In this document: positions 3,001 through 63,676 of the stretch, piece by piece
How positions within the stretch are numbered: position 1 is the first letter of the stretch
Layout of the letters: each line of letters begins with the position of its first letter
Source: Mayamaea pseudoterrestris
Lineage: Eukaryota
NCBI GenBank assembly: GCA_027923505.1
Contig: BROI01000001.1
Span: 2,170,001-2,234,000, forward strand
DNA: 64,000 nt
Direction: 5' to 3'
Notes under the pieces: generated by a model
What the model saw: only the letters and a program-made list of their open reading frames with translations
What the model was told of the DNA's origin: nothing
The model's database searches: none
Translations under genes and position numbers: made by a program

Positions 3001-6000
3001 ACAGGGCCTGCTGTAGGGGCGTTTGAATGTCCCGGCATCTGCGGGCTGAGACTGGTGACAAGTTGTCACCAAATACATTGCCATCCCCTGAGACACCAGC
3101 CAAGCCTACCATCTTGTAGCGCAGCCTGAATAATGATGTTGGCACCATTCTGGTGTATTTTGGGCACCTACAGGGCTTGCTGTAGGGGCGTTTGAATGTC
3201 CCGGCATCTGCGGGCTGAGACTGGTGACAAGTTGTCACCAAATACATTGCCATCCCCTGAGACACCAGCCAAGCCTACCATCTTGTAGCGCAGCCTGAAT
3301 AATGATGTTGGCACCATTCTGGTGTATTTTGGGCACCTACAGGGCTTGCTGTAGGGGCGTTTGAATGTCCCGGCATCTGCGGGCTGAGACTGGTGACAAG
3401 TTGTCACCAAATACATTGCCATCCCCTGAGACACCAGCCAAGCCTACCATCTTGTAGCGCAGCCTGAATAATGATGTTGGCACCCTTCTGGTGTATTTTG
3501 GGCACCTACAGGGCTTGCTGTAGGGGCGTTTGAATGTCCCGGCATCTGCGGGCTGAGACTGGTGACAAGTTGTCACCAAATACATTGCCATCCCCTGAGA
3601 CACCAGCCAAGCCTACCATCTTGTAGCGCAGCCTGAATAATGATGTTGGCACCATTCTGGTGTATTTTGGGCACCTACAGGGCTTGCTGTAGGGGCGTTT
3701 GAATGTCCCGGCATCTGCGGGCTGAGACTGGTGACAAGTTGTCACCAAATACATTGCCATCCCCTGAGACACCAGCCAAGCCTACCATCTTGTAGCGCAG
3801 CCTGAATAATGATGTTGGCACCATTCTGGTGTATTTTGGGCACCTACAGATCTTGCTGTAGGGGCGTTTGAATGTCCCAGCATCTGCGGGCTGAGACTGG
3901 TGACAAGTTGTCACCAAATATATACAATGCTATCCCCTGAGACACCAGCCAAGCCTACCATCTTGTAGCGCAGCCTGAATAATGATGTTGGCACCATTCT
4001 GGTGTATTTTGGGCACCTACAGGGCTTGCTGTAGGGGCGTTTGAATGTCCCGGCATCTGCGGGCTGAGACTGGTGACAAGTTGTCACCAAATACATTGCC
4101 ATCCCCTGAGACACCAGCCAAGCCTACCATCTTGTAGCGCAGCCTGAATAATGATGTTGGCACCATTCTGGTGTATTTTGGGCACCTACAGGGCCTGCTG
4201 TAGGGGCGTTTGAATGTCCCGGCATCTGCGGGCTGAGACTGGTGACAAGTTGTCACCAAATACATTGCCATCCCGTGAGACACCTATCAAGCCTACTTTC
4301 TTGTAGCGCAGCCTGAATAATGATGGTGGCACCATTCTGGTGTATTTTGGGCACCTACAGGGCTTGCTGTAGGGGCGTTTGAATGTCCCGGCATCTGCGG
4401 GCTGAGACTGGTGACAAGTTGTCACCAAATACATTGCCATCCCCTGAGACACCAGCCAAGCCTACCATCTTGTAGCGCAGCCTGAATAATGATGTTGGCA
4501 CCATTCTGGTGTATTTTGGGCACCTACAGGGCTTGCTGTAGGGGCGTTTGAATGTCCCGGCATCTGCGGGCTGAGACTGGTGACAAGTTGTCACCAAATA
4601 CATTGCCATCCCCTGAGACACCAGCCAAGCCTACCATCTTGTAGCGCAGCCTGAATAATGATGTTGGCACCATTCTGGTGTATTTTGGGCACCTACAGGG
4701 CTTGCTGTAGGGGCGTTTGAATGTCCCGGCATCTGCGGGCTGAGACTGGTGACAAGTTGTCACCAAATACATTGCCATCCCCTGAGACACCAGCCAAGCC
4801 TACCATCTTGTAGCGCAGCCTGAATAATGATGTTGGCACCATTCTGGTGTATTTTGGGCACCTACAGGGCTTGCTGTAGGGGCGTTTGAATGTCCCGGCA
4901 TCTGCGGGCTGAGACTGGTGACAAGTTGTCACCAAATACATTGCCATCCCCTGAGACACCAGCCAAGCCTACCATCTTGTAGCGCAGCCTGAATAATGAT
5001 GTTGGCACCATTCTGGTGTATTTTGGGCACCTACAGGGCCTGCTGTAGGGGCGTTTGAATGTCCCGGCATCTGCGGGCTGAGACTGGTGACAAGTTGTCA
5101 CCAAATACATTGCCATCCCCTGAGACACCAGCCAAGCCTACCATCTTGTAGCGCAGCCTGAATAATGATGTTGGCACCATTCTGGTGTATTTTGGGCACC
5201 TACAGGGCTTGCTGTAGGGGCGTTTGAATGTCCCGGCATCTGCGGGCTGAGACTGGTGACAAGTTGTCACCAAATACATTGCCATCCCCTGAGACACCAG
5301 CCAAGCCTACCATCTTGTAGCGCAGCCTGAATAATGATGTTGGCACCATTCTGGTGTATTTTGGGCACCTACAGGGCTTGCTGTAGGGGCGTTTGAATGT
5401 CCCAGCATCTGCGGGCTGAGACTGGTGACAAGTTGTCACCAAATACATTGCCATCCCCTGAGACACCAGCCAAGCCTACCATCTTGTAGCGCAGCCTGAA
5501 TAATGATGTTGGCACCATTCTGGTGTATTTTGGGCACCTACAGGGCTTGCTGTAGGGGCGTTTGAATGTCCCGGCATCTGCGGGGCTGAGACTGGTGACA
5601 AGTTGTCACCAAATACATTGCCATCCCCTGAGACACCAGCCAAGCCTACCATCTTGTAGCGCAGCCTGAATAATGATGTTGGCACCATTCTGGTGTATTT
5701 TGGGCACCTACAGGGCTTGCTGTAGGGGCGTTTGAATGTCCCGGCATCTGCGGGCTGAGACTGGTGACAAGTTGTCACCAAATACATTGCCATCCCCTGA
5801 GACACCAGCCAAGCCTACCATCTTGTAGCGCAGCCTGAATAATGATGTTGGCACCATTCTGGTGTATTTTGGGCACCTACAGGGCTTGCTGTAGGGGCGT
5901 TTGAATGTCCCGGCATCTGCGGGCTGAGACTGGTGACAAGTTGTCACCAAATACATTGCCATCCCCTGAGACACCAGCCAAGCCTACCATCTTGTAGCGC

Positions 6001-9000
6001 AGCCTGAATAATGATGTTGGCACCATTCTGGTGTATTTTGGGCACCTACAGGGCTTGCTGTAGGGGCGTTTGAATGTCCCGGCATCTGCGGGCTGAGACT
6101 GGTGACAAGTTGTCACCAAATACATTGCCATCCCCTGAGACACCAGCCAAGCCTACCATCTTGTAGCGCAGCCTGAATAATGATGTTGGCACCATTCTGG
6201 TGTATTTTGGGCACCTATAGGGCCTGCTGTAGGGGCGTTCGAAGGTCACGGCATCTGCGGACTGAGACTGGTGACAAGTTGTCACCAAATACATTGCCAT
6301 CCCCTGAGACACCAGCCAAGCCTACCATCTTGTAGCGCAGCCTGAATAATGATGTTGGCACCATTCTGGTGTATTTTGGGCACCTACAGGGCTTGCTGTA
6401 GGGGCGTTTGAATGTCCCGGCATCTGCGGGCTGAGACTGGTGACAAGTTGTCACCAAATACATTGCCATCCCCTGAGACACCAGCCAAGCCTACCATCTT
6501 GTAGCGCAGCCTGAATAATGATGTTGGCACCATTCTGGTGTATTTTGGGCACCTACAGGGCTTGCTGTAGGGGCGTTTGAATGTCACGGCATCTGCGGGC
6601 TGAGACTGGTGACAAGTTGTCACCAAATACATTGCCATCCCCTGAGACACCAGCCAAGCCTACCATCTTGTAGCGCAGCCTGAATAATGATGTTGGCACC
6701 ATTCTGGTGTATTTTGGGCACCTACAGGGCCTGCTGTAGGGGCGTTTGCATGTCCCGGCATCTGCGGGCTGAGACTGGTGACAAGTTGTCACCAAATACA
6801 TTGCCATCCCCTGAGACACCAGCCAAGCCTACCATCTTGTAGCGCAGCCTGAAGAATGATGTTGACACCATTCTGGTGTATTTGGGGTACCTACAGGGCT
6901 TGCTGTAGGGGCGTTTGAATGTCCCGGCATCTGCGGGCTGAGACTGGTGACAAGTTGTCACCAAATACATTGCCATCCCCTGAGACACCAGCCAAGCCTA
7001 CCATCTTGTAGCGCAGCCTGAATAATGATGTTGGCACCATTCTGGTGTATTTTGGGCACCTACAGGGCTTGCTGTAGGGGCGTTTGAATGTCATGGCATC
7101 TGCGGGCTGAGACTGGTGACAAGTTGTCACCAAATACATTGCCATCCCCTGAGACACCAGCCAAGCCTACCATCTTGTAGCGCAGCCTGAAGAATGATGT
7201 TGGCACCATTCTGGTGTATTTTGGGCACCTACAGGGCCTGCTGTAGGGGCGTTTGAATGTCCCGGCATCTGCGGGCTGAGACTGGTGACAAGTTGTCACC
7301 AAATACATTGCCATCCCCTGAGACACCAGCCAAGCCTACCATCTTGTAGCGCAGCCTGAATAATGTTGTTGGCACCATTCTGGTGTATTTTGGGCACCTA
7401 CAGGGCTTGCTGTAGGGGCGTTTGAATGTCCCGGCATCTGCGGGCTGAGACTGGTGACAAGTTGTCACCAAATACATTGCCATCCCCTGAGACACCAGCC
7501 TAGCCTACCATCTTGTAGCGCAGCCTGAATAATGATGTTGGCACCATTCTGGTGTATTTTGGGCACCTACAGGGCTTGCTGTAGGGGCGTTTGCATGTCA
7601 CGGCATCTGCGGGCTGAGACTGGTGACAAGTTGTCACCAAATACATTGCCATCCCCTGAGACACCAGCCAAGCCTACCATCTTGTAGCGCAGCCTGAATA
7701 ATGATGTTGGCACCATTCTGGTGTATTTTGGGCACCTACAGGGCCTGCTGTAGGGGCGTTTGAATGTCACAGCATCTGCGGGCTGAGACTGGTGACAAGT
7801 TGTCACCAAATACCATTGCCATCCCCTGAGACACCAGCCAAGCCTACCATCTTGTAGCGCAGCCTGAATAATGATGTTGGCACCATTCTGGTGTATTTTG
7901 GGCACCTACAGGGCTTCCTGTAGGGGCGTTTGAATGTCCCGGCATCTGCGGGCTGAGACTGGTGACAAGTTGTCACCAAATACATTGCCATCCGCTGAGA
8001 CACCAGCCAAGCCTACTATCTTGTGGCGCAGCCTGAATAATGATGTTGGCACCATTCTGGTGTATTTTGGGCACCTACAGGGCTTGCTGTAGGGGCGTTT
8101 GAATGTCCCGGCATCTGCGGGCTGAGACTGGTGACAAGTTGTCACCAAATACATTGCCATCCACTGAGACACCAGCCAAGCCTACCATCTTGTAGCGCAG
8201 CCTGAAGAATGATGTTGACACCATTCTGGTGTATTTTGGGCTCATACAGGGCCTGCTGTAGGGGCGTTTGCATGTCCCAGCATCTGCGGGCTGAGACTGG
8301 TGACAAGTTGTCACCAAATACATTGCCATCCCCTGAGACACCAGCCAAGCCTACCATAATGTAGCGCAGCCTGAATAATGATGTTGGCACCATTCTGGTG
8401 TATTTTGGGCACCTACAGGGCTTGCTGTAGGGGCGTTTGGATGTCCTGGCATCTGCGGGCTGAGACTGGTGACAAGTTGTCACCAAATACATTGCCATCC
8501 CCTGAGACACCAGCCAAGCCTACCCTCTTGTAGCGCAGCCTGAAGAATGATGTTGGCACCCTTCTGGTGTATTTTGGGCACCTACAGGGCCTGCTGTAGG
8601 GGCGTTTGCATGTCCCGGCATCTGCGGGCTGAGACTGGTGACAAGTTGTCACCAAATACATTTCCATCACCTGAGACACCAGCAAAGCCTACCATCTTGT
8701 AGCGCAGCCTGAAGAATGATGTTGACACCATTCTGGTGTATTTTGGGCACCTACAGGGCTTGCTGTAGGGGCGTTTGAATGTCCTGGCATCTGCGGGCTG
8801 AGACTGGTGACAAGTTGTCACCAAATACATTGCCATCCCCTGAGACACCAGCCAAGCCTACCATCTTGTAGCGCAGCCTGAATAATGATGTTGGCACCAT
8901 TCTGGTGTATTTTGGACACCTACAGGGCCTGCTGTAGGGGCGTTTGAATGTCCCGGCATCTGCGGGCTGAGACTGGTGACAAGTTGTCACCAAATACATT

Positions 9001-9034
9001 GCCATCCCCTGAGACACTAGCCAGGCATACCATC
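1..9034. repeat. 169-bp tandem satellite, homogeneous subfamily A, array 1 (~53 monomers, runs off the window start)
   Basis: Exact 169-bp period. Each monomer carries the dyads TGGTGACAA-G-TTGTCACCA and CCTACAG-N6-CTGTAGG. Most monomers read AATGTCCCGG. The array ends at the TG of an LTR at 9035. Confidence 0.99.
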
Positions 9035-9363
9035 TGACACAATATTATTGAGTTGAGTTGACCTGCGTCTTATGACAAGACGGTTAGCTACCTGTGTTTT
9101 GTATGCATTTAATCCTGTGCAGGGTTGAGTCACACTTGTGACCGAATCCTCACATACATGAGTGAAATCGCTGACGATCGAGGCGTGAACCTCGACCGTG
9201 AACCCAGTGAGAATGAGAAAGAAGCGCACGAGTAGAGTAGCGAGTAACATGCACTATTCTAGCAATTGAGTTTGTTTGTTTGCTTTACGCTGGACGAAGA
9301 GGTTGATCGCTCCGAGTCCATTGTAGTCGCTGGAATAAAGGTTCGTCTGATATTATCGTGTCA
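9035..9363 (+). repeat. 5' LTR of copia family A, copy A1 (329 bp)
   Basis: TGACAC...GTGTCA termini; near-identical to 26418-26746, 30981-31309 and 37376-37704. Confidence 0.97.
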
Positions 9364-9378
9364 GATTAACAGTCTTGC
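9364..9378 (+). promoter_or_regulatory. Putative primer-binding site of family A (GATTAACAGTCTTGC); also at 26747 and 31310
   Basis: Lies immediately 3' of the LTR. Its reverse complement GCAAGA-CTGTTAA-TC has the form of a tRNA-Asn(GUU) anticodon arm. Confidence 0.7.
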
Positions 9379-12300
9379 TAGCTTGTCTTGACCTGAGAGA
9401 GCTGTGCGAAAGAGAGAGAGTGAAAGAATCGAGAAATTGAGAGAGAAAGAGCAGATTCCTTGCGGCGTCGTCAATCCGAATACTTGGCATGAGCGCGTAG
9501 AACAGGATCATATAAGGCTCGACTGCATTGAGAGCGGTTGTTGTGTGAGAAAGGACTTGCGGAAAGCGAGGTATTCACTATCATGGTTTCGGTTACTGCG
9601 GAGGCTTTGCAAGCGCTCTGTGTGAACGTTTTCGGACGAGACATCCAAGAAGCGTTCTTGTTTTGGAATGTAACCACCACTACCCAGATGTTGAGATTGA
9701 CCAAGGAGCAACTTGAAGCCCCCTACTGGGTCGACAGAGCCGCCATCCCACCAGGCGTTGGCCAACCTGAAGGCGCGCAACCCGACGATGCGCAGCCGGG
9801 CGACAAGCCGGCCGAGGAACCGGCCGAAGAACAAGCAGCCGCCGCCCCAGCACGATACGAGACGCGTCTACCACCAGTCGACGTGAACCTTATCCTCGAT
9901 GCATGCGAAAGGTTTAACATGCACAACGGAGCCCCGAACACCAAGAGGTGGACGGAGCTTGATTTAGGCAAGCTTGAGCGATTCCAAGAAAGACTCGCCG
10001 AACAAGAAATCGGTCGGAAGCGTGAAGAAGGGTACTATAACCTCAAGTCCAAGAGGGCGCAAGCCGAGCTACTTGCCAAGCAACTCGAAAATGAGAATAT
10101 GAAGGCTGAGAAGGCCGAAAAGGAAGCAGATGCCAAGGGTCGTTTCTCGAACATCAAGACGAAGCGAGATTACAAGGACTACAAAACGTTCCAGCATCCC
10201 CACGGGTGGTTGAGTTGGAGCGCGTCTACCAAGGCAATCGCCAAGCTCCATGGCTGTTCTAACGTGCTCGGAAGAAGAGAAGGAAGAGTTCAAGGAGCAG
10301 CAAATCTTCATGTACACTGCGTTTTGCAATTGTCTCGAAGTACCTGGATACCAATCGCTCCTAATGAAGTACGCTGACGAGTCTGACGCTCAGAGCGTCT
10401 ATCGCAACCTCGCGACCAAGTTTGGTTCCAGCGAGTTAGCTACCATCCAAGCGAACGAACTGCAAGCCAAGCTTGCGACGATTCGCCTAGATTCGACCTG
10501 GACAAAAGGACACTACAAGTTCCTAAACTACATCGAACAGCTCATGAAGAATCTCGAAGAGTTCCGTCCTGGAGTGACGGATGACAAGAAGAAGTACTAC
10601 TGGCTCCGAGCTGCAGTGGAAGGCGACGAAGAGTTCGGCCCCACGTGCACGACATTTGACCAGCACTTAACATTTGAACGATGACGCATCATCAGTGCAA
10701 ACGGTGACCCAGACCCCATCGTAATGGAAGATTATGACTATCATTTTGACATGTTGTCACAGCAGGCTCTGCCCGTCGACAACAAAAACGCCAAGTTGAA
10801 CAAGGGCAAGAAGAACGCCGACCGCCAAGCGAACAACGTGAACACTTCCGGGCAAGGACGTGGTAATGGACGCGGTTCCGGCCATGGCGGAGGACGCGGC
10901 GGCCAAGGCGGACGCGCAGAGACGGACGGTGGGCGTGGCACCCAAGTGGCGCTACGGGTTCCGAGGACGAGGCTCTTCCGCGCCACTACCAGCGAGCCGG
11001 TACGCTGAAGTGCATCGGGAACGATTTCCTGGTGATTATCTGAACTTTGAACAGTTGTTGCAGGCCCCCTGGTTGTTCATGTCGTACAGCACTCGCCGAC
11101 TCAACAGCGCGACGAAACGCCAGCCCACGCAAGCCGCCCTGCAAGACCCGAACAACAAGACGCGCGAATCAACGGAAACCGCTGCGAAAACCAGCAGTCA
11201 GCAGCAGCCGCATCGGTGCCCGCAATCTCGTATCAGAATGACGCCGCCCCCGAAGCACCAACGCACAGCCACTCAAGGTGCAACGATGACATGATTAGAT
11301 CTTCCTTGCGAACGCCGGGTCGTTCGCACTCGCGCGAAACACCAGCAAGAGCTTCGGGGAGCGACGGCCGCCGAACCAAGGCAATGGTATCGGGCGCTAC
11401 ACTCGCGAATCGAGCCGCAGCAACCCCCGAGAGGAACGGGGTCGAGGGGACCGAGCGATATGAGAACTTGAGTACTACCAACACACGAACGTGACAGGTT
11501 TGAGCAACCACACGGTTCGCGACTCCAAGTCGGAACTGGCGCCGCATGATTGAGACTCTCGGACTGAATCTATTTATTATCAGTCTAACCAGTATGCTGG
11601 TACGACGGTGCGAATCCATTCAGCGCAATCGCAGCTGTTCGCTCGCCATCTGGATCGACTAACGCCGCCGCTTCCCAGCAGCGGCGCGCCATTGTCACCA
11701 GTTGTGGCAAGACCATCCCCTTGGCGATCCGTGACGGTTTGCTCTGTATGGATAAGGGCGCCCAACCGACGGATGCAGAGTTGAAATGTATCCGACGGGT
11801 CATTTTCTTCATGGACACCCTTGGATCCGGGCAGAGTTGGATAATGAATGGAACGAAGAAGACGAGTTTAATCGTCAGCTGAATGAATGGAAGAAAACTA
11901 CGGTTTCACGACGCCGCGATGGATGCACTCGGCGACTCCACCTACCGGAACAACATGAACTCAGTGGAACGTGGTGCAAAAAGCATCGACGCAATCAGGT
12001 TGATACGACGCAAGCCAATGCACGACGCATAATGCCAATAAGAAATTTCCGACTACCAAGCGCTTCTCTCTCTCGACCCTTACCTTGGCTATACTACTTG
12101 AACGAGTCAAGCGCACTCATTAAGAATACGATTACAGCTTCGTGCATCGGCACACACCCCATTTCGCCAATACTTTAAGTCGCGATTCCCTGCCGCCATG
12201 TGTGTTTCCCTGACGACACGAGGACAGATACTCTGGTTTTCCAAGGAAGCCGCCAGAAACGACGGGAACCGCGGCCATGGCGGATGCAAGATGATGCAAC

Positions 12301-13672
12301 TGTTCGCCGTGGCAAGAAGAGCCTGCTGACGCAGGGATACCCACTGAGAACCGAGAGAAGCGCTCCTGGCGCAAGACTTAATTCGAGACATGGGCGTCCC
12401 GACTTGCCTATTAGCGATAATCATGAGTGCAGCTCGGAAGCAAAGTTGAAACCTGTTGCGATTCTACGCGATTCAGGACTAACAGAGCGAGCCCGACAGA
12501 ACCAGAATCGCCGAGCGCCGATCCGGCCAGGCCAGTCATCAGTCCAGAACATCATGAACCGCATCGGGCGCACTCCGCTGGAGCCTGGCTCGCGCGCGCT
12601 GCACGTAATTGCCTTGGTCAACAATCTGGCGACCGAGTCCCTCAACTGGGAAGACCCCACTGAAGCCGCCAACCGAGTAATACCTCGACATTACTGCCGG
12701 CTTCCTGCAGTTCGCCCTGGGAACGAGTCCTGTACTGGGCTGGAGCCGACGCAGCCGCCGACATTTCCTCACACACATAGGAAGCAGCAGGACGCTGGGC
12801 CGGCATTGCAGAGAACAAGGGTGACATCCCTCGCGTACTCAAGTTCGATCCGATCGAATCCGGAATGGTTGTTGTCCGATCCAACGCCCGCCCTTTCTCC
12901 GAAGGACAACCTACGCGCTGAAGCTGAAAGCGCCCTGAACCTGAGTCCGAACGACCATTGTTCCGCGGAACCTGTCTTCGACGCACGCCCGCGCGCAGAA
13001 CGAGTGAAACTGGGTCGACGAGTTTGGACGATGAGTATGACCTCCAGCGTCGGTCCGGTGTTTGAACACGACCTACACCGAGCCCACAGCGCCTGACTGG
13101 GGAACGCGGGATGAAGACGCATTCACGCTTGGAAAAGGGCCGAAGTTAGCCGGGTTTGGATCCCGACGGACTCCATGCCGCCCTTTACTCGCTGAACTGA
13201 TGGGACGCGACTGTCCTTCTTGACGAGGAAGACGGCTCCACGCGACGCTACAAGGTTATCGAGCAAACTAAACGATCGCGATGAAGCCAACCACAAGATC
13301 ATCAAGTTCCACTGAGCCTCGGCGACGGGCGACGTCGACGAGCTTATTACCTACAACGAACTAGCCACCTGTGCGAGCGGCAAGATTCTTTACGACTGGG
13401 GACGATGACAACGACGACCAGTACCACAAGTTTGGGATTTCATTGACGGACATGAGGGTCCACTGACACAAGCCGACGCCACGCGCACCGCGGCTCATCC
13501 CACAACTTGCTCATACACTGGGCAAATGAAGTAGGAAGACCTGGGAGCCACTGCATTGATTATCAAGTCCCATTCCTGTGACCGCTGCCGAGTATGGCAA
13601 GCGCAAGGGTATGCTGGAAAAGGATGGATGGAAGCGCTGAGGCGCATGGCAGGACACACTAAACTGTTCCGA

Positions 13673-19929: not shown

Positions 19930-20640
19930 TCCATTCTGGCTTGATTTGGGCGTACTCATGGCTCTAGGTATGAGCATTTGAAAATCACAGCATCTGCTGG
20001 CTGAGACTGGTGACAAGTTGTCACCAATCGCATTGCAGTCTACTGAGGGACCAGCCAGGCAATCCATCTTGTAGCGCACCTGAAATAAGGATGTTAGCAC
20101 CATTCTGGCTTGATTTGGGCAAACAGATGGCTCTAGGTATGGGCATTTGAATATTACGGCATCTGCTGGCTGAGACTGGTGACACGTTGCCACCAATCGC
20201 ATTGCAGTCTACTGAGGGACCAGCCAGTCAACGTATCTTGTAGCGCATCTGAAAAAAGATGTTAGCACCATTCTAGCTTGATTTGGGCATACGCATGGCT
20301 CTAGGTATGGGCATTTGAAAAGCCTGTCATCTGCTGGCTGAGACTGGTGACAAGTTGTCACCAATCACATTGCCATCTACTGAGGGATTAGCCAGGCAAT
20401 TCATCTTGTAGCGCATTTGAAATAAGGATGTTAGCACGATTCTGGCTTGATTTGGGCATGCGCATGGCTCTAGGTATGGGCATTGAAAATCACGGCATCT
20501 GCTGGCTGAGACTGGTGACAAGTTGTCAACAATCACATTGCAGTCTACTGAGGGACCAGCACAGGCAATTCATCGTGTAGCGCACCTGATAAAAAGATGT
20601 TAGCACCATTCTATTTGATTTGAAATACACATGGCTCTAG
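19930..20640 (+). repeat. 169-bp satellite, diverged subfamily B (~4 monomers), same orientation as the A arrays
   Basis: Keeps GAGACTGGTGACAAGTTGTCACCAA but has GGCTCTAGGTATGGGC and TGGCTTGATTTGGG variants. Switches abruptly to subfamily A at ~20641. Confidence 0.92.
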
Positions 20641-25269: not shown

Positions 25270-25463
25270 TGTTATGAATACGCACTCGCCATGACTCATT
25301 AATATCCTATTCTGTCCACCATCCATTTCATCGCTGTGCTCAGCCACTCGATTAGCAAGAGTCTCCTGGCGCTTACCGCCATGATCTCGTTAATGTAACA
25401 ATTCAACGTTATTGAACTAGTCTGCTTCGAGTGTCTGCTGTAGTACCTTGTGGCCCTTCAACA
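25270..25463 (+). repeat. Putative 5' LTR of copia family C (194 bp)
   Basis: Sharp junction with the satellite, TGTT...AACA termini, followed by a gag-like ORF. There is no partner LTR, so the 3' boundary is inferred. Confidence 0.75.
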
Positions 25464-26417: not shown

Positions 26418-29400
26418 CGACACAATATTATTGAGTTGAGTTGACCTGCGTCTTATGACAAGACGGTTAGCTACCTGTGTTTTGTATGCATTTAATCCTG
26501 TGCAGGGTTGAGTCACACTTGTGACCGAATCCTCACATACATGAGTGAAATCGCTGACGATCGAGGCGTGAACCTCGACCGTGAACCCAGTGAGAACGAG
26601 AAAGAAGCGCACGAGTAGAGTAGCGAGTAACATGCACTATTCTAGCAATTGAGTTTGTTTGTTTGCTTTACGCTGGACGAAGAGGTTGATCGCTCCTAGT
26701 CCATTGTAGTCGCTGGAATAAAGGTTCGTCTGATATTATCGTGTCAGATTAACAGTCTTGCTAGCTTGTCTTGACCTGAGAGAGCTGTGCGAAAGAGAGA
26801 GAGTGAAAGAATCGAGAAATTGAGAGAGAAAGAGCAGATTCCTTGCGGCGTCGTCAATCCGAATACTTGGCACGAGCGCGTAGAACAGGATCGTATAAGG
26901 CTCGACCGCATTGAGAGCGGTTGTTGTGTGAGAAAGGACTTGCGGAAGCGAGGTATTCACTATCATGGTGTCGATTACTGCGGAAGCTTTGCAGCTTCTC
27001 TGCACGAACGTTTTCGGACGAGACATCCAAGAAGCGTTCTTGTTTTGGAATGTAACCACCACGACCCAGATGTTGAGATTGACCAAGGAGCAACTTGAAG
27101 CCCCCTACTGGGTCGACAGAGCCGCCATTCAAGCTGGCGTTGGACAACCTGAAGGTGCGCAACCCGACGATGCGCCGCCGGGCGACGAGCCGGCCGAAGA
27201 ACCGGCCGAAGAGCAAGAAGCCGCCGCCCCAGTACGATACGAAACGACACTAGCACCAGTCTACGTGAACCTTGTCCTCGATGCATGCGAATGGTTTACC
27301 ATGCACGACGGACCCCCGAACACCAAGAAATGGGCGTTGCTGGATTTAGGCAAGCTCGAGCGATACCAAGCGGTTCTCGCGGAACAAGAAATCGCGCGGA
27401 AGCGTGAAGAAGGATACTACGTACTCGAGTCCAAGAAGAAGCAAGCCGAGCTACTTGCCAAGCAACTCGAAAATGAGACCATCAAGGCTGAGAAGGCCGA
27501 AAAGGAAGAAGATGCCAAGGGTCGTTTCTCGAACCTCAAGACGAAACGAGACTACAAGGACTACAAAACGTTCCAACATCCCCACGCGTGGTTGAGTTGG
27601 AGCGCGTCTACCAAGGCAATCGCCAAGCTCCATGGCTGTTCTAACGTGCTCGACAGCAAGTACGTACCAGTCACGGAAGAAGAGAAGGAAGAATTCGAGA
27701 ATCAGTGTATCTTCAGGTACACTTCGTTTCGCAATTGCCTCGAAGTGGGCTGATACCAGTCGCTCTTGATGAAGAGCAGCGACAAGTCTGACGCTCAAGG
27801 CGTCTATCGCGAACTCGCGACCAAGTTTGGTTCCGGCGAGTTAGCTACCATCCAAGCGAATGAACTGCAAGCCAAGCTTGCGACGATTCGCCTAGATTCG
27901 ACCTGGACGAAAGGACACTACAAGTTCCTAAACTACATCGAACAGCTCATGAAGAATCTCGAAGAGTTCCGTCCTGGAGTGACGGATGACAAGAAGAAGT
28001 ACTACTGGCTCCGAGCTGCAGTGGAGGGCGACGAAGAATTCGGCCCCACGTGCACGACGTTCGACCAGCACCTGCAATTTGAACGACGACGCATCATCAG
28101 TGCAAATGGTGATCCAGATGCCGTCGTGACGGAAGATTATGACTGTCTTTTTCGACATGTTGTCGCAGCAAGGCTTTGCGCGTCGACAACAAGAACGCCA
28201 AGCTGAATAAGGGCAAGAAGAACGCCGACCGCCAAGCGAACAACGCGAACACTTCCGGCAAGGACGTGGTAATGGACGCGGTTCCGGTCGTGGCGGAGGA
28301 GCGGGCGGCGAAGGCGGACGCGGGGTGGGCGAGACGGTGGACGCGGTTCCCAAGTGAGCCGCGGTTCCGGAGGACGAGGCTCTTCCGCGCCACTACCAGC
28401 AGCCGGTACGCAAGCGCATCGGGAACGATTCCCTGGCGATTATCTGAACTTTGAACAGTTGTTGCAGAACCCCTGGTCGTACATGTCGTATGAACGACTC
28501 GGCCGACTTAACGAGGACGAATACGCTCAGCTCATGGCTCGACGTGAAGCCGTCCCAAGACCCGCCACCACAAGACGCGCGAACAACAGTAACCGTGCGA
28601 ATAACCAGCAGTCACAAGCGGCTGCATCGGTGCCTGGTACAATCTTGTATCAGAACGACGCTGTCTCGATCGCCCCGACGACAGCCACTCAAGGTGCACC
28701 GGATGACATGATTAGATCTTTCCTTGCGAACGCCGCGTCGTCTCGCACTCAAGCTGCGAATAACACCCAGCAAGAGTTTATGGGAAGCGACGGCCGTCGG
28801 TACCGCGCAATGGTATCGGTGCGCTACACTGTGAATCGAAGCTTCGCAGAAGACCCGCCAAGGATCACTGATTGACGGCGGTGCGAACGGTGGACTCGCT
28901 GGAAGCGATATGAGAATCTTGAGTACTACCAACCACACGTGTAACGTGACAGGTTTGAGCGACCACACGGTTCGCGACCTTCAAGTCGGAACTGGCGTCG
29001 CATTGATTGAGACTCGGACTGGACCCATTATCGGGCAGTTCAACCAGTATGCTTTGTACGACGGTGCTGAATCCATTCATGCTCCGTCGCAGCTTCGGTC
29101 GTTCGGTCATCTGATCGACGACGTCCCTCGCTCCCAGAATGGAACACAAGCCATTGTCACCAGTTGTGGCAAGACCATCCCCTTGGCGATCCGCGACGGT
29201 TTGCCTCGAATGGATATGCGTCCGCCGACGGACGCAGAGTTGGAAATGTATCCGACGGTCATTTTCTCTGCGGACACCCTTTGGGATCCGGCGGACTTAG
29301 ACAATGAATGGAACGAAGAAGAACTTGAGTTTAATCGTCACCTCGACGAATTAGAAGAAACCCACGGTTTCGTCGACGCCCGCATGGATGACTTCGGCGA

Positions 29401-30980
29401 CGCCACCTACCGGAACAACATGAACTCAGTGGAACGTGTGGTGCAGTATGTCGATCGCAATCAGGCTGATACGACGCGCCAAGCCAATGCACGACGCATA
29501 ATGCCACAAGAACCTGACTACCAAGCGCTTCGACCCTACCTTGGCTACACGCCACTTGAACGAGTCAAGCGCACCATTAAGAATACGACACAGCTTTTCC
29601 GTGCATCGGCACACACCCCATTTCGCCAACACTTTAAGTCGCGATTCCCTGCCGCCAATGTGGTTCGTTTCCATGACGATACGGCGACAGATACCTGGTT
29701 TACCCAGGTACCCGCCTTTAACGACGGAATCCGCGGCCATGGCGGATGCAAGATGATGCAACTGTTCGTCGGCAAGAAGAGTCTGCTGACGAGGGGATAC
29801 CCACTGAGAACCGAGAGTGACATGCCCATGGCGCTCGAAGACTTCATTCGAGACATTGGCGCTCCCGATTTGCTCATTAGCGATAACTCGCGAGTGCAGC
29901 TCGGGAAGCAAGTTGAAACCTTGTTGCGATTCTACGCGATTCGTGACCAACAGAGCGAGCCCGGATACCAGAACCAGAACCCTGCCGAGCGTCGCATCCA
30001 AGAAGTCAAGTCATCAGTCCAAAACATCATGAACCGTACGGGCGCACCCGCTGGAGCCTGGCTCCTATGCGCGCTGTACGTAATCGCCTTATTCAACAAT
30101 CTGGCGACCGAGTCCCTCAACTGGAAGACCCCTACTGAAGCCGCCTTCAACCGAGTACCCGACATTTTGCCGTTCCTGCAGTTCAAGTTCTGGGAACGAG
30201 TCCTGTACGAAGCTGGAGCCGACGAGCCGCCGACATTTCCTCACACCAAGGAAGCAGCAGGACGCTGGGTCGGCATTGCAGAGAACAAGGGTGACATCCT
30301 CACGTACCAAGTTCGATCCGATCGGACTGGAATGGTTGTCGTCCGATCCAACGTTCGTCCCTTCTCCGAAGGGCGTAACCTACGCGCTGAAGCTGAAAGC
30401 GCTCCTGAACCCGAGTCCGAACGACCACTGTTCGCGGAACCTGTCTTCGACGCGCGTCCCGCGCGTGAACGAGCCCAAGTCGAAACTGTCGACGAGTTTG
30501 ACGATGATTATGACCTAGTCGGTCCGGTGTTTGAACACGACCTTACACCGACCCCAGCGCCTGATTCTGGGGGAACCGTGGATGAAGACGCATTCACGTT
30601 GGAAAGCGCTGCCGAGTTAGCCGGTTTGGATCCCGACGGACCCATGCCGTCCTTTACTCCGGCTGAACTGATGGGACGCACTGTCCTTCTTGACGAGGAA
30701 GACGGCTCCACGCGACGTTACAAGGTTATCGAGCAACTGAACGATCGCGATGAAGCCAACCACAAGATTATCAAGTTTCGATTGAGTCTCGGCGACGGCG
30801 ACGTCGACGAGCTTATTACCCACCGAACCAGCCACCTTTGCGGAATACGCAGATCTGTACGACGACGATGACAACGACGACCAGTACTACAAGTTTGATT
30901 TCATTGACGGACATGAAGGTCCACTGACACAAGCCCACGCTACGATCGCGGCTCATCCTACAAGGCTTGCTGATTAAATG
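26418..30980 (+). mobile_element. Copia family A copy A2: LTR (26418-26746)-gag-PR-INT, truncated tandem duplicate of A3
   Basis: Near-identical to 30981-35540 at an offset of 4563 bp. Protease LIDGGANGG; integrase TDTWF...ISDN...QNPAERRI. Confidence 0.96.
28910..30871 (+). CDS. Pol fragment (protease C-terminal part and integrase) of copy A2
   Basis: 653-aa ORF with DDE integrase motifs; identical translation to 33472-35433. Confidence 0.9.
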   Translation: MRILSTTNHTCNVTGLSDHTVRDLQVGTGVALIETRTGPIIGQFNQYALYDGAESIHAPSQLRSFGHLIDDVPRSQNGTQAIVTSCGKTIPLAIRDGLPRMDMRPPTDAELEMYPTVIFSADTLWDPADLDNEWNEEELEFNRHLDELEETHGFVDARMDDFGDATYRNNMNSVERVVQYVDRNQADTTRQANARRIMPQEPDYQALRPYLGYTPLERVKRTIKNTTQLFRASAHTPFRQHFKSRFPAANVVRFHDDTATDTWFTQVPAFNDGIRGHGGCKMMQLFVGKKSLLTRGYPLRTESDMPMALEDFIRDIGAPDLLISDNSRVQLGKQVETLLRFYAIRDQQSEPGYQNQNPAERRIQEVKSSVQNIMNRTGAPAGAWLLCALYVIALFNNLATESLNWKTPTEAAFNRVPDILPFLQFKFWERVLYEAGADEPPTFPHTKEAAGRWVGIAENKGDILTYQVRSDRTGMVVVRSNVRPFSEGRNLRAEAESAPEPESERPLFAEPVFDARPARERAQVETVDEFDDDYDLVGPVFEHDLTPTPAPDSGGTVDEDAFTLESAAELAGLDPDGPMPSFTPAELMGRTVLLDEEDGSTRRYKVIEQLNDRDEANHKIIKFRLSLGDGDVDELITHRTSHLCGIRRSVRRR

Positions 30981-33471
30981 GGACACAATATTATTGAGTT
31001 GAGTTGACCTGCGTCTTATGACAAGACGGTTAGCTACCTGTGTTTTGTATGCATTTAATCCTGTGCAGGGTTGAGTCACACTTGTGACCGAATCCTCACA
31101 TACATGAGTGAAATCGCTGACGATCGAGGCGTGAACCTCGACCGTGAACCCAGTGAGAACGAGAAAGAAGCGCACGAGTAGAGTAGCGAGTAACATGCAC
31201 TATTCTAGCAATTGAGTTTGTTTGTTTGCTTTACGCTGGACGAAGAGGTTGATCGCTCCTAGTCCATTGTAGTCGCTGGAATAAAGGTTCGTCTGATATT
31301 ATCGTGTCAGATTAACAGTCTTGCTAGCTTGTCTTGACCTGAGAGAGCTGTGCGAAAGAGAGAGAGTGAAAGAATCGAGAAATTGAGAGAGAAAGAGCAG
31401 ATTCCTTGCGGCGTCGTCAATCCGAATACTTGGCACGAGCGCGTAGAACAGGATCGTATAAGGCTCGACCGCATTGAGAGCGGTTGTTGTGTGAGAAAGG
31501 ACTTGCGGAAGCGAGGTATTCACTATCATGGTGTCGATTACTGCGGAAGCTTTGCAGCTTCTCTGCACGAACGTTTTCGGACGAGACATCCAAGAAGCGT
31601 TCTTGTTTTGGAATGTAACCACCACGACCCAGATGTTGAGATTGACCAAGGAGCAACTTGAAGCCCCCTACTGGGTCGACAGAGCCGCCATTCAAGCTGG
31701 CGTTGGACAACCTGAAGGTGCGCAACCCGACGATGCGCCGCCGGGCGACGAGCCGGCCGAAGAACCGGCCGAAGAGCAAGAAGCCGCCGCCCCAGTACGA
31801 TACGAAACGACACTAGCACCAGTCTACGTGAACCTTGTCCTCGATGCATGCGAATGGTTTACCATGCACGACGGACCCCCGAACACCAAGAAATGGGCGT
31901 TGCTGGATTTAGGCAAGCTCGAGCGATACCAAGCGGTTCTCGCGGAACAAGAAATCGCGCGGAAGCGTGAAGAAGGATACTACGTACTCGAGTCCAAGAA
32001 GAAGCAAGCCGAGCTACTTGCCAAGCAACTCGAAAATGAGACCATCAAGGCTGAGAAGGCCGAAAAGGAAGAAGATGCCAAGGGTCGTTTCTCGAACCTC
32101 AAGACGAAACGAGACTACAAGGACTACAAAACGTTCCAACATCCCCACGCGTGGTTGAGTTGGAGCGCGTCTACCAAGGCAATCGCCAAGCTCCATGGCT
32201 GTTCTAACGTGCTCGACAGCAAGTACGTACCAGTCACGGAAGAAGAGAAGGAAGAATTCGAGAATCAGTGTATCTTCAGGTACACTTCGTTTCGCAATTG
32301 CCTCGAAGTGGGCTGATACCAGTCGCTCTTGATGAAGAGCAGCGACAAGTCTGACGCTCAAGGCGTCTATCGCGAACTCGCGACCAAGTTTGGTTCCGGC
32401 GAGTTAGCTACCATCCAAGCGAATGAACTGCAAGCCAAGCTTGCGACGATTCGCCTAGATTCGACCTGGACGAAAGGACACTACAAGTTCCTAAACTACA
32501 TCGAACAGCTCATGAAGAATCTCGAAGAGTTCCGTCCTGGAGTGACGGATGACAAGAAGAAGTACTACTGGCTCCGAGCTGCAGTGGAGGGCGACGAAGA
32601 ATTCGGCCCCACGTGCACGACGTTCGACCAGCACCTGCAATTTGAACGACGACGCATCATCAGTGCAAATGGTGATCCAGATGCCGTCGTGACGGAAGAC
32701 TATGACTGTCTTTTTCGACATGTTGTCGCAGCAAGGCTTTGCGCGTCGACAACAAGAACGCCAAGCTGAATAAGGGCAAGAAGAACGCCGACCGCCAAGC
32801 GAACAACGCGAACACTTCCGGCAAGGACGTGGTAATGGACGCGGTTCCGGTCGTGGCGGAGGAGCGGGCGGCGAAGGCGGACGCGGGGTGGGCGAGACGG
32901 TGGACGCGGTTCCCAAGTGAGCCGCGGTTCGGAGGACGAGGCTCTTCCGCGCCACTACCAGCAGCCGGTACGCAAGCGCATCGGGAACGATTCCCTGGCG
33001 ATTATCTGAACTTTGAACAGTTGTTGCAGAACCCCTGGTCGTACATGTCGTATGAACGACTCGGCCGACTTAACGAGGACGAATACGCTCAGCTCATGGC
33101 TCGACGTGAAGCCGTCCCAAGACCCGCCACCACAAGACGCGCGAACAACAGTAACCGTGCGAATAACCAGCAGTCACAAGCGGCTGCATCGGTGCCTGGT
33201 ACAATCTTGTATCAGAACGACGCTGTCTCGATCGCCCCGACGACAGCCACTCAAGGTGCACCGGATGACATGATTAGATCTTTCCTTGCGAACGCCGCGT
33301 CGTCTCGCACTCAAGCTGCGAATAACACCCAGCAAGAGTTTATGGGAAGCGACGGCCGTCGGTACCGCGCAATGGTATCGGTGCGCTACACTGTGAATCG
33401 AAGCTTCGCAGAAGACCCGCCAAGGATCACTGATTGACGGCGGTGCGAACGGTGGACTCGCTGGAAGCGAT

Positions 33472-35433
33472 ATGAGAATCTTGAGTACTACCAACCACAC
33501 GTGTAACGTGACAGGTTTGAGCGACCACACGGTTCGCGACCTTCAAGTCGGAACTGGCGTCGCATTGATTGAGACTCGGACTGGACCCATTATCGGGCAG
33601 TTCAACCAGTATGCTTTGTACGACGGTGCTGAATCCATTCATGCTCCGTCGCAGCTTCGGTCGTTCGGTCATCTGATCGACGACGTCCCTCGCTCCCAGA
33701 ATGGAACACAAGCCATTGTCACCAGTTGTGGCAAGACCATCCCCTTGGCGATCCGCGACGGTTTGCCTCGAATGGATATGCGTCCGCCGACGGACGCAGA
33801 GTTGGAAATGTATCCGACGGTCATTTTCTCTGCGGACACCCTTTGGGATCCGGCGGACTTAGACAATGAATGGAACGAAGAAGAACTTGAGTTTAATCGT
33901 CACCTCGACGAATTAGAAGAAACCCACGGTTTCGTCGACGCCCGCATGGATGACTTCGGCGACGCCACCTACCGGAACAACATGAACTCAGTGGAACGTG
34001 TGGTGCAGTATGTCGATCGCAATCAGGCTGATACGACGCGCCAAGCCAATGCACGACGCATAATGCCACAAGAACCTGACTACCAAGCGCTTCGACCCTA
34101 CCTTGGCTACACGCCACTTGAACGAGTCAAGCGCACCATTAAGAATACGACACAGCTTTTCCGTGCATCGGCACACACCCCATTTCGCCAACACTTTAAG
34201 TCGCGATTCCCTGCCGCCAATGTGGTTCGTTTCCATGACGATACGGCGACAGATACCTGGTTTACCCAGGTACCCGCCTTTAACGACGGAATCCGCGGCC
34301 ATGGCGGATGCAAGATGATGCAACTGTTCGTCGGCAAGAAGAGTCTGCTGACGAGGGGATACCCACTGAGAACCGAGAGTGACATGCCCATGGCGCTCGA
34401 AGACTTCATTCGAGACATTGGCGCTCCCGATTTGCTCATTAGCGATAACTCGCGAGTGCAGCTCGGGAAGCAAGTTGAAACCTTGTTGCGATTCTACGCG
34501 ATTCGTGACCAACAGAGCGAGCCCGGATACCAGAACCAGAACCCTGCCGAGCGTCGCATCCAAGAAGTCAAGTCATCAGTCCAAAACATCATGAACCGTA
34601 CGGGCGCACCCGCTGGAGCCTGGCTCCTATGCGCGCTGTACGTAATCGCCTTATTCAACAATCTGGCGACCGAGTCCCTCAACTGGAAGACCCCTACTGA
34701 AGCCGCCTTCAACCGAGTACCCGACATTTTGCCGTTCCTGCAGTTCAAGTTCTGGGAACGAGTCCTGTACGAAGCTGGAGCCGACGAGCCGCCGACATTT
34801 CCTCACACCAAGGAAGCAGCAGGACGCTGGGTCGGCATTGCAGAGAACAAGGGTGACATCCTCACGTACCAAGTTCGATCCGATCGGACTGGAATGGTTG
34901 TCGTCCGATCCAACGTTCGTCCCTTCTCCGAAGGGCGTAACCTACGCGCTGAAGCTGAAAGCGCTCCTGAACCCGAGTCCGAACGACCACTGTTCGCGGA
35001 ACCTGTCTTCGACGCGCGTCCCGCGCGTGAACGAGCCCAAGTCGAAACTGTCGACGAGTTTGACGATGATTATGACCTAGTCGGTCCGGTGTTTGAACAC
35101 GACCTTACACCGACCCCAGCGCCTGATTCTGGGGGAACCGTGGATGAAGACGCATTCACGTTGGAAAGCGCTGCCGAGTTAGCCGGTTTGGATCCCGACG
35201 GACCCATGCCGTCCTTTACTCCGGCTGAACTGATGGGACGCACTGTCCTTCTTGACGAGGAAGACGGCTCCACGCGACGTTACAAGGTTATCGAGCAACT
35301 GAACGATCGCGATGAAGCCAACCACAAGATTATCAAGTTTCGATTGAGTCTCGGCGACGGCGACGTCGACGAGCTTATTACCCACCGAACCAGCCACCTT
35401 TGCGGAATACGCAGATCTGTACGACGACGATGA
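33472..35433 (+). CDS. Pol fragment (protease and integrase) of copy A3
   Basis: DDE integrase motifs, preceded in frame by LIDGGANGGLAGSD. Confidence 0.9.
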   Translation: MRILSTTNHTCNVTGLSDHTVRDLQVGTGVALIETRTGPIIGQFNQYALYDGAESIHAPSQLRSFGHLIDDVPRSQNGTQAIVTSCGKTIPLAIRDGLPRMDMRPPTDAELEMYPTVIFSADTLWDPADLDNEWNEEELEFNRHLDELEETHGFVDARMDDFGDATYRNNMNSVERVVQYVDRNQADTTRQANARRIMPQEPDYQALRPYLGYTPLERVKRTIKNTTQLFRASAHTPFRQHFKSRFPAANVVRFHDDTATDTWFTQVPAFNDGIRGHGGCKMMQLFVGKKSLLTRGYPLRTESDMPMALEDFIRDIGAPDLLISDNSRVQLGKQVETLLRFYAIRDQQSEPGYQNQNPAERRIQEVKSSVQNIMNRTGAPAGAWLLCALYVIALFNNLATESLNWKTPTEAAFNRVPDILPFLQFKFWERVLYEAGADEPPTFPHTKEAAGRWVGIAENKGDILTYQVRSDRTGMVVVRSNVRPFSEGRNLRAEAESAPEPESERPLFAEPVFDARPARERAQVETVDEFDDDYDLVGPVFEHDLTPTPAPDSGGTVDEDAFTLESAAELAGLDPDGPMPSFTPAELMGRTVLLDEEDGSTRRYKVIEQLNDRDEANHKIIKFRLSLGDGDVDELITHRTSHLCGIRRSVRRR

Positions 35434-35547
35434 CAACGACGACCAGTACTACAAGTTTGATTTCATTGACGGACATGAAGGTCCACTGACACAAGCCCAC
35501 GCTACGATCGCGGCTCATCCTACAAGGCTTGCTGATTAAATGGACGA

Positions 35548-37026
35548 TTGTCGAACGTCCGCCTGATATGCTGTGACGCGCGCGAGCAGCGCAAGGGTAT
35601 GCTGGAAAAGGATGGATGGAAGCGCTTGAGGCGCATGGCAGGACGCACTAAACTGTTTAACCGCATGTGCAAGGCTGCAAAGAAGAACCGTGTCCAAGAA
35701 GCGCGTTTCAAGTTTGGCGTTCAAGTTCCTAATACCTGGAAGGAAGCGAACCGCCTCGACGCTGCTAATGGAAACACCCTGTGGGCTGACGCCGTCAAGA
35801 CTGAGATGGAGCAGCTACACGAGTACGACACTTTCATCGACAAGGGCATCGGTGCCTTCATGGAAAGTGACTGGAAGCGTATCAACGCGCATCTTGTTTT
35901 CGACTGCAAGAACGATCTACGACGTAAGGCCCGGCTCGTCGCCGGGGGACATTTGACCGCTCCGCCCAAGGACTCCGCCTACTCCGGCGTTGTATCTATG
36001 CGAAGCATTCGAACCATAGCACTGTTAGCTGAACTGAACGACCTCAAGTTTTGGGCTGCCGATGTCGGTAACGCCTACCTCGAGGCCAAGACCAAGGAAA
36101 AGGTCTACATTGTTGCCGGTCCCGAGTTTGGACCATTGGAAGGCCATACCTTGGTCATCTACAAGGCACTTTACGGATTGCGCACTTCTGGCGCGCGTTG
36201 GCATGAGCACTTTGCCGACACACTCCGCGACATTGGATTCTACCCAAGCTACGCGGATCCTGACGTCTGGATGAAAGACTGTGGCACTCACTACGAGTAC
36301 GTCGGCGTGTTCGTCGACGATCTGGCTATGGCCATGAAAGATCCACAAGCCTTCACGGACCTCCTCAAGGACAAGTACAAGTACAAGTTGAAGGGCGTCG
36401 GCGACATCAAGTATCACCTTGGAGCCGACTTCTATCGTGATCCCGATGGAACCCTCTGCATGAGCGCGAAGACCTACGTCGGTCGCATGCTCAAGAACTA
36501 CGAGACCATGTTTGGCGAGAAGCCACGCAAGCGCAAGTCACCGCTTGACGACGGGGACCACCCCGAACTTGACCTTACCGAAGAGCTGGATGCCCGTGGC
36601 ATTCAACAGTACCAGTCTCTTATCGGTGCCCTCCAGTGGGCAGTGACCCTATGTCGACTTGACATTCATTGTGCCGTAATGACACTTGGCCGATTCCGCT
36701 GCGCCCCGCGCCGCGGACACCTGGACCGAGCCAAGCGAGTCTGCGGTTACCTAGCTGAGTACCCTGATGCGGCGATTCGTTTCCGGACGAAGATCGTCGA
36801 TCACGGGGAACCTACCAAGTATGATTGGTTGCAATCGGTCTACGGCAACTCAAGCGAAGAGCTTCCGTGGAACATGCCGATCCCGAAGGGCAAGCCTGTG
36901 CAACTAACTACCTTTATGGACGCGAACCTGTACCATGATTACACTACTGGACCGCCCAATGGGAGTCCTGCATTTCCTGAACCAGACGCCCGTCGAATGG
37001 TTCTGCAAGCGTCAGAATACTATTGA
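35548..37026 (+). CDS. Reverse transcriptase and start of RNase H of copy A3
   Basis: Copia-type RT motifs. RNase H continues through frameshifts to ~37364. Confidence 0.93.
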   Translation: MSNVRLICCDAREQRKGMLEKDGWKRLRRMAGRTKLFNRMCKAAKKNRVQEARFKFGVQVPNTWKEANRLDAANGNTLWADAVKTEMEQLHEYDTFIDKGIGAFMESDWKRINAHLVFDCKNDLRRKARLVAGGHLTAPPKDSAYSGVVSMRSIRTIALLAELNDLKFWAADVGNAYLEAKTKEKVYIVAGPEFGPLEGHTLVIYKALYGLRTSGARWHEHFADTLRDIGFYPSYADPDVWMKDCGTHYEYVGVFVDDLAMAMKDPQAFTDLLKDKYKYKLKGVGDIKYHLGADFYRDPDGTLCMSAKTYVGRMLKNYETMFGEKPRKRKSPLDDGDHPELDLTEELDARGIQQYQSLIGALQWAVTLCRLDIHCAVMTLGRFRCAPRRGHLDRAKRVCGYLAEYPDAAIRFRTKIVDHGEPTKYDWLQSVYGNSSEELPWNMPIPKGKPVQLTTFMDANLYHDYTTGPPNGSPAFPEPDARRMVLQASEYY

Positions 37027-37704
37027 GACTGCAAAGTACGGATCCGAGTTCGCGCGCCAAGCCGCGACGGAACAGATTACCGTGGTTTGGGATTCACTGC
37101 TCGCAGTTGGGATCTTGCGTGGACCAGACGTTCGCGACGTGTCAAGGCGTCAACGCCGCCACACTTTAGCCCGCATGCGCCGACTACCACCGAGTTCGCG
37201 AGGCCATTGCAAGCAATGTTCTGTACTTTGAGCACATCTTCGGCAAGCAGAACGTCGCCGACGTTCTTACCAAGTTCTTGCCGCATGCCACGTTCCAACC
37301 CCTGATTATTCCGATTCTTTTCAGGAAGGGTGATACGGCAAACCGATCGTTGTCACAAGCCTAGATCAAGGGGGATGACACAATATTATTGAGTTGAGTT
37401 GACCTGCGTCTTATGACAAGACGGTTAGCTACCTGTGTTTTGTATGCATTTAATCCTGTGCAGGGTTGAGTCACACTTGTGACCGAATCCTCACATACAT
37501 GAGTGAAATCGCTGACGATCGAGGCGTGAACCTCGACCGTGAACCCAGTGAGAACGAGAAAGAAGCCCACGAGTAGAGTAGCGAGTAACATGCACTATTC
37601 TAGCAATTGAGTTTGTTTGTTTGCTTTACGCTGGACGAAGAGGTTGATCGCTCCGAGTCCATTGTAGTCGCTGGAATAAAGGTTCGTCTGATATTATCGT
37701 GTCA

Positions 37705-45912: not shown

Positions 45913-46155
45913 TACAGCAGCAGTCTCTTACTCGTAGTGTACCAGTAAAAAATGAATTTCACGCAATGGGCGCTCACTCGTGGTCATGGTGCCCGCATTG
46001 GAGGGACTGATGATGTCGCACCGCAAATGAGTGAAAACTGGTGCGACATTCAAAGCTTGACGACCATCCGATGTGCACGATAGCAATCATTCCTCTCCCT
46101 TTTGTGATACATCCTTCCTGTCATTTAAAAAGGAGAACAATCCAAATAATTTGTC

Positions 46156-58533: not shown

Positions 58534-58909
58534 TGTTGAGAGTAAATACGTTTTGCATGAGACTTGGCTATGTAACTGATGGGAAAGTATATGTGCCCGA
58601 GAAGGGGCGAAGGGATTCGCTAAGTGGGTCCTAAGTAATTGAGTGAATGATACAGTCAGCTGTTCTGACTGTCTAAGTGGAGGTCCGTGGGCGACCGAGA
58701 TATAGGCTATGAGCGAAGTAGGTTGGCGAGGGTGCGGATGCACCTCGACCAGGTTTGAAATAATAAAGATCACTTTTCTATGGCAACAACAGGTTGTAGA
58801 ACATACTAGTAGCAATTTTCTGAAGACCTTCCAGCATTTCTCGAGAAAGATTCGTGGACTGGGTCTCGGAAAGAAGTAAGAGAAAGGTCAGGAACAAGGA
58901 GACTGCGCC

Positions 58910-61144: not shown

Positions 61145-61192
61145 GACTGCAACCAAGACGACATCAAACGATATGGACAAGGAGCCATTGGA

Positions 61193-63355: not shown

Positions 63356-63676
63356 CCGTCTCATGGCGGAGCGTGTTGAGAGTAAATACGTTTTGCATGA
63401 GACTTGGCTATGTAACTGATGGGAAAGTATATGTGCCCGAGAAGGGGCGAAGGGATTCGCTAAGTGGGTCCTAAGTAATTGAGTGAATGATACAGTCAGC
63501 TGTTCTGACTGTCTAAGTGGAGGTCCGTGGGCGACCGAGATATAGGCTATGAGCGAAGTAGGTTGGCGAGGGTGCGGATGCACCTCGACCAGGTTTGAAA
63601 TAATAAAGATCACTTTTCTATGGCAACAACAGGTTGTAGAACATACTAGTAGCAATTTTCTGAAGACCTTCCAGCA

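Follow-up and report, generated by a model that had tools for sequence, protein, structure and literature searches.

The primer binding site of the Drosophila copia element, which we take to be GGTTATGGGCCCAG, presumably spans the anticodon loop of its tRNA and reaches two bases into the 3' side of the stem. As a retroelement site, GGTTATGGGCCCAG was not found in a full-text literature search. Priming of copia is by a half-tRNA, and Ty5 of yeast starts from internal cleavage of the initiator tRNA-Met (PMC5371799). For the rust-fungus Copia/Helenus elements, priming from the anticodon loop has been inferred with tRNA-Tyr, Ile, Asp and iMet, and tRNA-Asn-GTT was adopted once in the fungal Helenus (Kojima, PMC10886601). 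In plants, half tRNA-Met is described for Osser, Bryco and part of Gymco-II, and half tRNA-Ile for Bianca; half tRNA-Asn is not among the primers listed in the accessible part of that survey (PMC6317226). The site of the fungal Copia element FunCo1, ATTAAGAGTCT, matches an internal region of tRNA-Lys (PMC5445492).

A literature search that covered article text found no published description of the primer site in Copia elements of diatoms, CoDi-I and CoDi-II included. By a term search, neither tRNA nor primer binding site is mentioned in the accessible main text of Maumus et al. 2009 (PMC2806351), and no such site is described for diatom Copia in the accessible text of PMC4247016.

Here we describe a Ty1/copia family, family A, and the sequence that adjoins its 5' LTRs. 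Three copies are located in the window (the whole stretch of DNA that was analysed, 64 kb). We consider it likely that the 15 bases following the 5' LTRs of family A are a primer binding site that pairs with positions 26-40 of a host tRNA-Asn(GUU) half. Priming by half-tRNAs is already known; what is added is an Asn site common to a large diatom-associated clade, not a new mechanism. The use of tRNA-Asn is less novel than the first-pass annotation of this DNA had assumed, because Asn-GTT anticodon-loop priming has already been proposed for the fungal Helenus (PMC10886601).

The coordinates of the family A copies, their predicted primer binding sites and the other features of the window are collected in Table 1.

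Table 1. Features of the window, with positions counted from its first letter
Feature	Position	Strand	Remarks
5' LTR, copy 1	9035..9363	+	TGACAC...GTGTCA; sits within 169-bp satellite
LTR segment, alternative pairing partner	9075..9089	+	10/15 bases match
Predicted primer binding site, copy 1	9364..9378	+	GATTAACAGTCTTGC
Internal part, copy 1	9379..13511	+	degenerate; ~87% identity to full copy
5' LTR, copy 2	26419..26746	+	without first T of TG
Predicted primer binding site, copy 2	26747..26761	+	GATTAACAGTCTTGC
Internal part, copy 2	26762..30981	+	cut at element position 4562; adjoins next LTR
5' LTR, full-length copy 3	30982..31309	+	without first T of TG
Predicted primer binding site, copy 3	31310..31324	+	GATTAACAGTCTTGC
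Gag-like open frame, copy 3	31495..32316	+	273 aa; no Pfam match
Protease/integrase-region open frame, copy 3	33397..35433	+	678 aa
Reverse transcriptase frame, copy 3	35536..37026	+	Pfam RVT_2, PF07727, E 5.6e-26
Polypurine tract AAGGGGGA	37368..37375	+	directly 5' of 3' LTR
3' LTR, copy 3	37376..37704	+	unrelated sequence AAAATGGTG comes next
MCM7-like helicase gene	43033-45753	-	
DUF1823 protein gene	46150-46968	+	
Protein kinase gene	57247-58887	-	
Family B LTRs	58534-58837, 63374-63677		304 bp, 100% identical

The full family A copy occupies 30982-37704 (6723 bp). Four LTRs of 328 or 329 bp were delimited by self-comparison of the window, and the LTR together with the first 37 internal bases is 99.5% identical among the three copies. 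The LTRs at 9035 and 37376 keep their first T; in its place copies 2 and 3 have C and G at the start of their 5' LTRs (window 26418-26419 and 30981-30982). The TG...CA ends of the LTR (TGACAC...GTGTCA), the polypurine tract and the RVT_2 type of the reverse transcriptase are features by which the sequence classes family A as a Ty1/copia element. No copy has both of the flanks from which a 5-bp target site duplication could be read: copy 1 breaks off internally, and a tandem LTR is common to copies 2 and 3. Copy 1 (9035-13511) stops upstream of the reverse transcriptase at element position ~4552, and copy 2 ends almost alike (window 30981, element position 4562), just upstream of the same frame. 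Copy 2 abuts the LTR of copy 3; tandem element-LTR-element arrays also occur in the metagenome relatives L094, L096, L099 and L106.

None of the frames upstream of the reverse transcriptase has a Pfam match at E<=0.01. These frames, the 678-aa one among them, align with the polyproteins of relatives, which are 1,100-1,970 residues long, and two of these relatives have PF00665 before PF07727. In the full copy, pol is spread across several frames, and the element may not be active at present; this is counted against the explanation that we prefer. Protein relatives number 3349 at E<=0.001, and PF07727 is found in all of the 120 listed. Among the matches listed, the diatom Mayamaea pseudoterrestris supplies the nearest named relative, a hypothetical protein with 67% identity, and most of the remaining listed relatives are metagenome contigs of 6-8 kb. 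The diatom match is the one pointer to a possible place of family A with the CoDi clades of diatom Copia elements (Maumus et al. 2009, PMC2806351). No relatives of the family A element were found in viral contigs.

Arrays of a 169-bp satellite lie at 1-9034, ~20600-25300 and 40248-41373, the last as an inverted variant, with units 96-100% alike. The family A copies are in or beside these arrays, copy 1 directly inside one. The helicase, DUF1823 and kinase genes are located beside the repeats, so that part of the window is ordinary gene space. A second complete Copia element, family B (58534-63677), contains the domains zf-CCHC, Pol_BBD and RVT_2. The junction of its LTR with the internal part is a 12-base palindrome, TTTCTCGAGAAA. 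A half-tRNA site at this junction was rejected by eye, since there is a palindrome and no tRNA-loop complement. The palindrome recalls the conserved hairpin site of fungal GalEa elements (PMC5445492, accessible part).

All 5' LTRs of family A end in ...ATCGTGTCA immediately 5' of the 15-mer GATTAACAGTCTTGC. The 15-mer has exactly three matches in the 64-kb window, all on the + strand and each beginning at the first base 3' of an LTR, the ends of which are fixed by the 3' LTR and the polypurine tract. No extra match appears when up to two mismatches are allowed, and three or more matches were obtained in 0 of 100 shuffles. A TGG-type site follows none of the three 5' LTRs. The sequence after the 3' LTR is different. 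As the three copies hardly differ over the LTR and the next 37 bases, we treat them as a single observation, and the recurrence inside the window proves no more than that the 15-mer is part of the element. Metagenome contigs add 42 distinct contexts from related elements as independent support.

The reverse complement of GATTAACAGTCTTGC reads G, CAAGA, CTGTTAA, TC. In standard tRNA numbering, these are presumably G26, the stem at 27-31, the loop C32 U33 GUU A37 A38, and positions 39-40. The TC 3' of the loop pairs with the GA 5' of it, as read from the sequence, and the stretch is therefore self-consistent as part of a hairpin. The complementarity of the 15-mer to tRNA-Asn(GUU) runs from 26 to 40; it takes in G26, the 5' side of the stem, the 7-base loop and two bases of the 3' strand.

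The predicted 17-base arm, CAAGA-CTGTTAA-TCTTG, was composed and then scanned against a collection of viral contigs, in which it has 57 exact matches. In 46 of them the match lies across a tRNA-Asn(gtt) called by ARAGORN, and in none across a tRNA-Lys. Nine of the other 11 matches are without a tRNA call; in another, the one tRNA called is unrelated and lies at a different place in the locus, and in the last a tRNA-Ala was called over the region. A G stands directly 5' of the arm in 32 of the 57. It follows from these matches that the 15-mer is the exact complement of positions 26-40 of natural tRNA-Asn genes. Both parts of the first-pass description are thereby borne out, namely that the 5' LTRs of family A continue with GATTAACAGTCTTGC where a TGG would be looked for (3/3 copies) and that its complement reads as a tRNA-Asn anticodon arm. 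The giant-virus bins L015 and L052, which are viral contigs, encode a tRNA-Asn with exactly the arm of family A.

A survey of the site across related elements had been set beforehand as a check. The alignment of 30 polyproteins led to 78 distinct metagenome loci, among 542 confirmed relatives. In the 456,127 bases of these loci the 9-mer GATTAACAG is present on the coding strand at 44 of 78 loci (48 matches) and on the opposite strand at a single locus (2 matches). The two bases 5' of it are always CA (27) or TA (17). The sites are located 3.9-5.6 kb upstream of the reverse transcriptase match or 2.1-3.3 kb downstream, the downstream position being the LTR junction in tandem or circularly assembled contigs. 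In the relatives L091 and L094 the LTR repeats stop exactly 5' of the motif.

The contexts of the motif were compared over 60 bases in 43 distinct versions, 42 from the loci and one from the window. The searched 9-mer is followed by T in 43/43 and then by C in 42/43. The three bases after this TC vary and give ten versions of the stem, of which the commonest are TCGCA (12), TCACA (10), TCGTA (6), TCTCG (5) and TCTTG (4). There is almost no conservation past the stem bases or upstream of the last six bases of the LTR. The AAC that complements the anticodon is invariant in the 44 loci. A fixed core with a varying stem is the pattern that would be expected of a match to a fixed anticodon loop with a host-specific stem. 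The core conserved across the clade is 11 bases long, and the distal 3-4 bases of the 15-mer may therefore not all be needed; this is counted against the pairing as proposed. The motif is lacking in 34 of the 78 loci, most of which are too short to include the junction, and five have near variants.

One relative, L088, has GATTAAAAGTCTGG after its LTR end, which is the complement of a tRNA-Lys(UUU) arm in an unchanged register. The arm predicted from L088 has at least 119 viral matches, and tRNA-Lys(ttt) was called in 29 of the 30 tested. L088 thus appears to represent one switch of primer with the register kept. The proposal of the first-pass annotation that family A is primed by a half of tRNA-Asn gains support from the 11-base core at 44/78 junctions, from its varying stem and from this Lys arm. 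The Lys-UUU arm that fits L088 is present in many giant-virus bins.

Other relatives fit less well. L063, L073, L075 and L099 carry an extra base in the loop part of the site, after TTAA and before AG (GATTAATCAGTCTTG and GATTAACAAGTCTTG are examples). These one-base-longer sites may form a bulged duplex or pair with a different primer; conceivably, the elements have adjusted to an anticodon loop that is unusual or modified. The extra base is not explained by a simple duplex and is counted against the tRNA-Asn explanation. The same applies to L076, L122 and L135, in which no recognisable site was found 4.5-5.2 kb upstream of the reverse transcriptase match.

No tRNA genes were found in the 64-kb window by ARAGORN, or by Rfam at gathering scores, and a scan of 60 of the 78 metagenome loci (the first 60) gave none either. 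Eight sequencing runs from two studies contain about half of the element's sampled words; among RNA runs, a search by the same words found no family A element. The contigs of four runs that hold the element were compared, at 80% likeness, with a viral tRNA-Asn that bears the predicted arm (bait L033:265-349). One contig each from X1 and X5 covers positions 282-336 of the bait, corresponding to tRNA positions 8-62, and agrees with it at 51 of 55 bases with no gap. The loose ends of these contigs are complementary over 7 bases (acceptor stem), and are followed by one unpaired base and, five bases on, by TTTT. Two or more of the four differences must be in the 5' strand of the T-stem, since its 3' strand departs from that of the bait. 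This leaves at most two for the other 48 bases, 18 of which are G26 and the arm. The tRNA gene of X1 and X5 therefore likely carries the predicted arm, judging from the partial match; up to two differences could fall in the arm or the anticodon, and this is counted against the assignment. Two further types of tRNA-like contig have five differences in 35-40 bases, and X2 and X4 gave these only.

A full-length tRNA has no 3' end at the site, and the primer must for this reason be a 3'-truncated tRNA-Asn, the 5' half. In the mechanism that we propose, tRNA-Asn would be cut after position 40, inside the 3' side of the anticodon stem. The cut tRNA would anneal by its last 14-15 bases, and the new 3'-OH would be extended into U5 by the reverse transcriptase of the element, giving minus-strand strong-stop DNA. 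We infer the cleavage, the exact position of the cut and the priming by analogy with Drosophila copia and yeast Ty5. A37 is modified in both tRNA-Asn and the initiator tRNA-Met, and a doubly methylated G is common at position 26. A modified position 26 would fit a complementarity that ends at 26-27.

The Copia elements of diatoms are activated by stress. It is conceivable, if rather unlikely, that the diatom-associated Copia clade is locked on 5' halves of tRNA-Asn and that its replication is gated by the supply of such fragments, for example through stress-induced cleavage. If true, the activation of these elements by stress would be tied to the supply of their primer.

Explanations that keep the tRNA-Asn arm or a closely similar one were weighed against the proposed priming. 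The motif might bind intact tRNA-Asn, or mimic its arm, in packaging, dimerisation or translation control, with priming achieved otherwise. Such a role gains from the fact that priming by the motif is itself deduced, and it accommodates the one-base-longer variants of the four relatives more easily, as no polymerase would have to extend from them. However, the motif starts at the first base after the LTR every time, where the 3' end of a primer must sit, and other candidate sites are absent, there being no TGG-type site and no LTR self-complement. In copia and Ty5, a site arranged in this way is proven to be the primer site (PMC5371799), and a role of the motif outside priming is given a low probability. 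The primer might also be another host small RNA or tRNA, such as a tRNA-Lys with a near-identical arm and one mismatch at position 34. The arms of tRNA-Lys and tRNA-Asn are alike, L088 has clearly switched to the Lys-UUU arm, and the nearest host tRNA could differ from the bait in its anticodon. Against this stand the anticodon complement AAC, which does not vary in the 44 loci, and the natural matches of the 17-base arm, which are tRNA-Asn(gtt) in 46/57 and tRNA-Lys in none; a primer other than tRNA-Asn is thus improbable.

Self-priming of the Tf1 type, in which the site would pair with a segment of the LTR in the element's own transcript, had been named in the first-pass annotation as the alternative to a tRNA, with a partner near 9075. 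The segment at 9075-9089 does match at 10/15 bases with a run of 6, but 24% of shuffled queries equal 10/15 in the same LTR (p = 0.24). None of 36 relatives has a significant complement (p<=0.05) within 600 bases upstream, and the segment lies 40 bases inside the LTR, which would leave almost no U3. Self-priming is very improbable on this evidence, and the alternative was abandoned. Chance resemblance without function has the shortness of the site in its favour and nothing more. It is refuted in practice by the strand-specific recurrence of the motif at the junction (44/78 loci against 1 on the other strand) between flanks that are not conserved, and its probability is negligible. Pairing of the site with a 5' half of tRNA-Asn remains the preferred explanation.

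This explanation clearly assigns a primer to a large group of Copia elements that has been little studied and is abundant in diatom-rich metagenomes. It also suggests that, outside fungi, plants and animals, the half-tRNA strategy first seen with the initiator tRNA-Met was taken up with tRNA-Asn and in one case with tRNA-Lys. Where it follows an LTR end, the 11-base core GATTAACAGTC can serve as an annotation marker for family A-like elements, the sites of which are missed by standard PBS finders because these test tRNA 3' ends alone. Neither this core nor its complement was found in a retroelement or tRNA context in the full-text literature search.

Comparison with the described systems places family A among several partial likenesses. 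Tf1 and family A are both without a site for the 3' end of a tRNA, but family A lacks the complement by which Tf1 is defined, that of the site with the beginning of the transcript. The FunCo1 site is also internal to a tRNA and about 11 bases long, and it is one base off the core of family A. The difference falls in the complement of the anticodon, which is CTT (Lys) in FunCo1 and GTT (Asn) in family A (PMC5445492, accessible part). Bianca, Osser, Bryco and Gymco-II resemble family A in that a half-tRNA primer is used lineage-wide within Ty1/copia. They differ in the tRNA and in the kingdom of the host, and the tRNA-Asn mentioned in the plant survey is used via its 3' end (PMC6317226).

The Asn case in Helenus involves a non-autonomous fungal element and a single lineage, whereas family A is of the autonomous type and its Asn site is clade-wide (PMC10886601, accessible part). 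With copia and Ty5, family A shares the superfamily (RVT_2) and a site that adjoins the 5' LTR, and presumably also the register, with pairing over the anticodon loop that stops two bases into the stem's 3' strand. Unlike family A, for which the primer is assigned from sequence alone as tRNA-Asn(GUU) of a diatom-like host, copia and Ty5 use the initiator tRNA-Met, and their use of it is proven.
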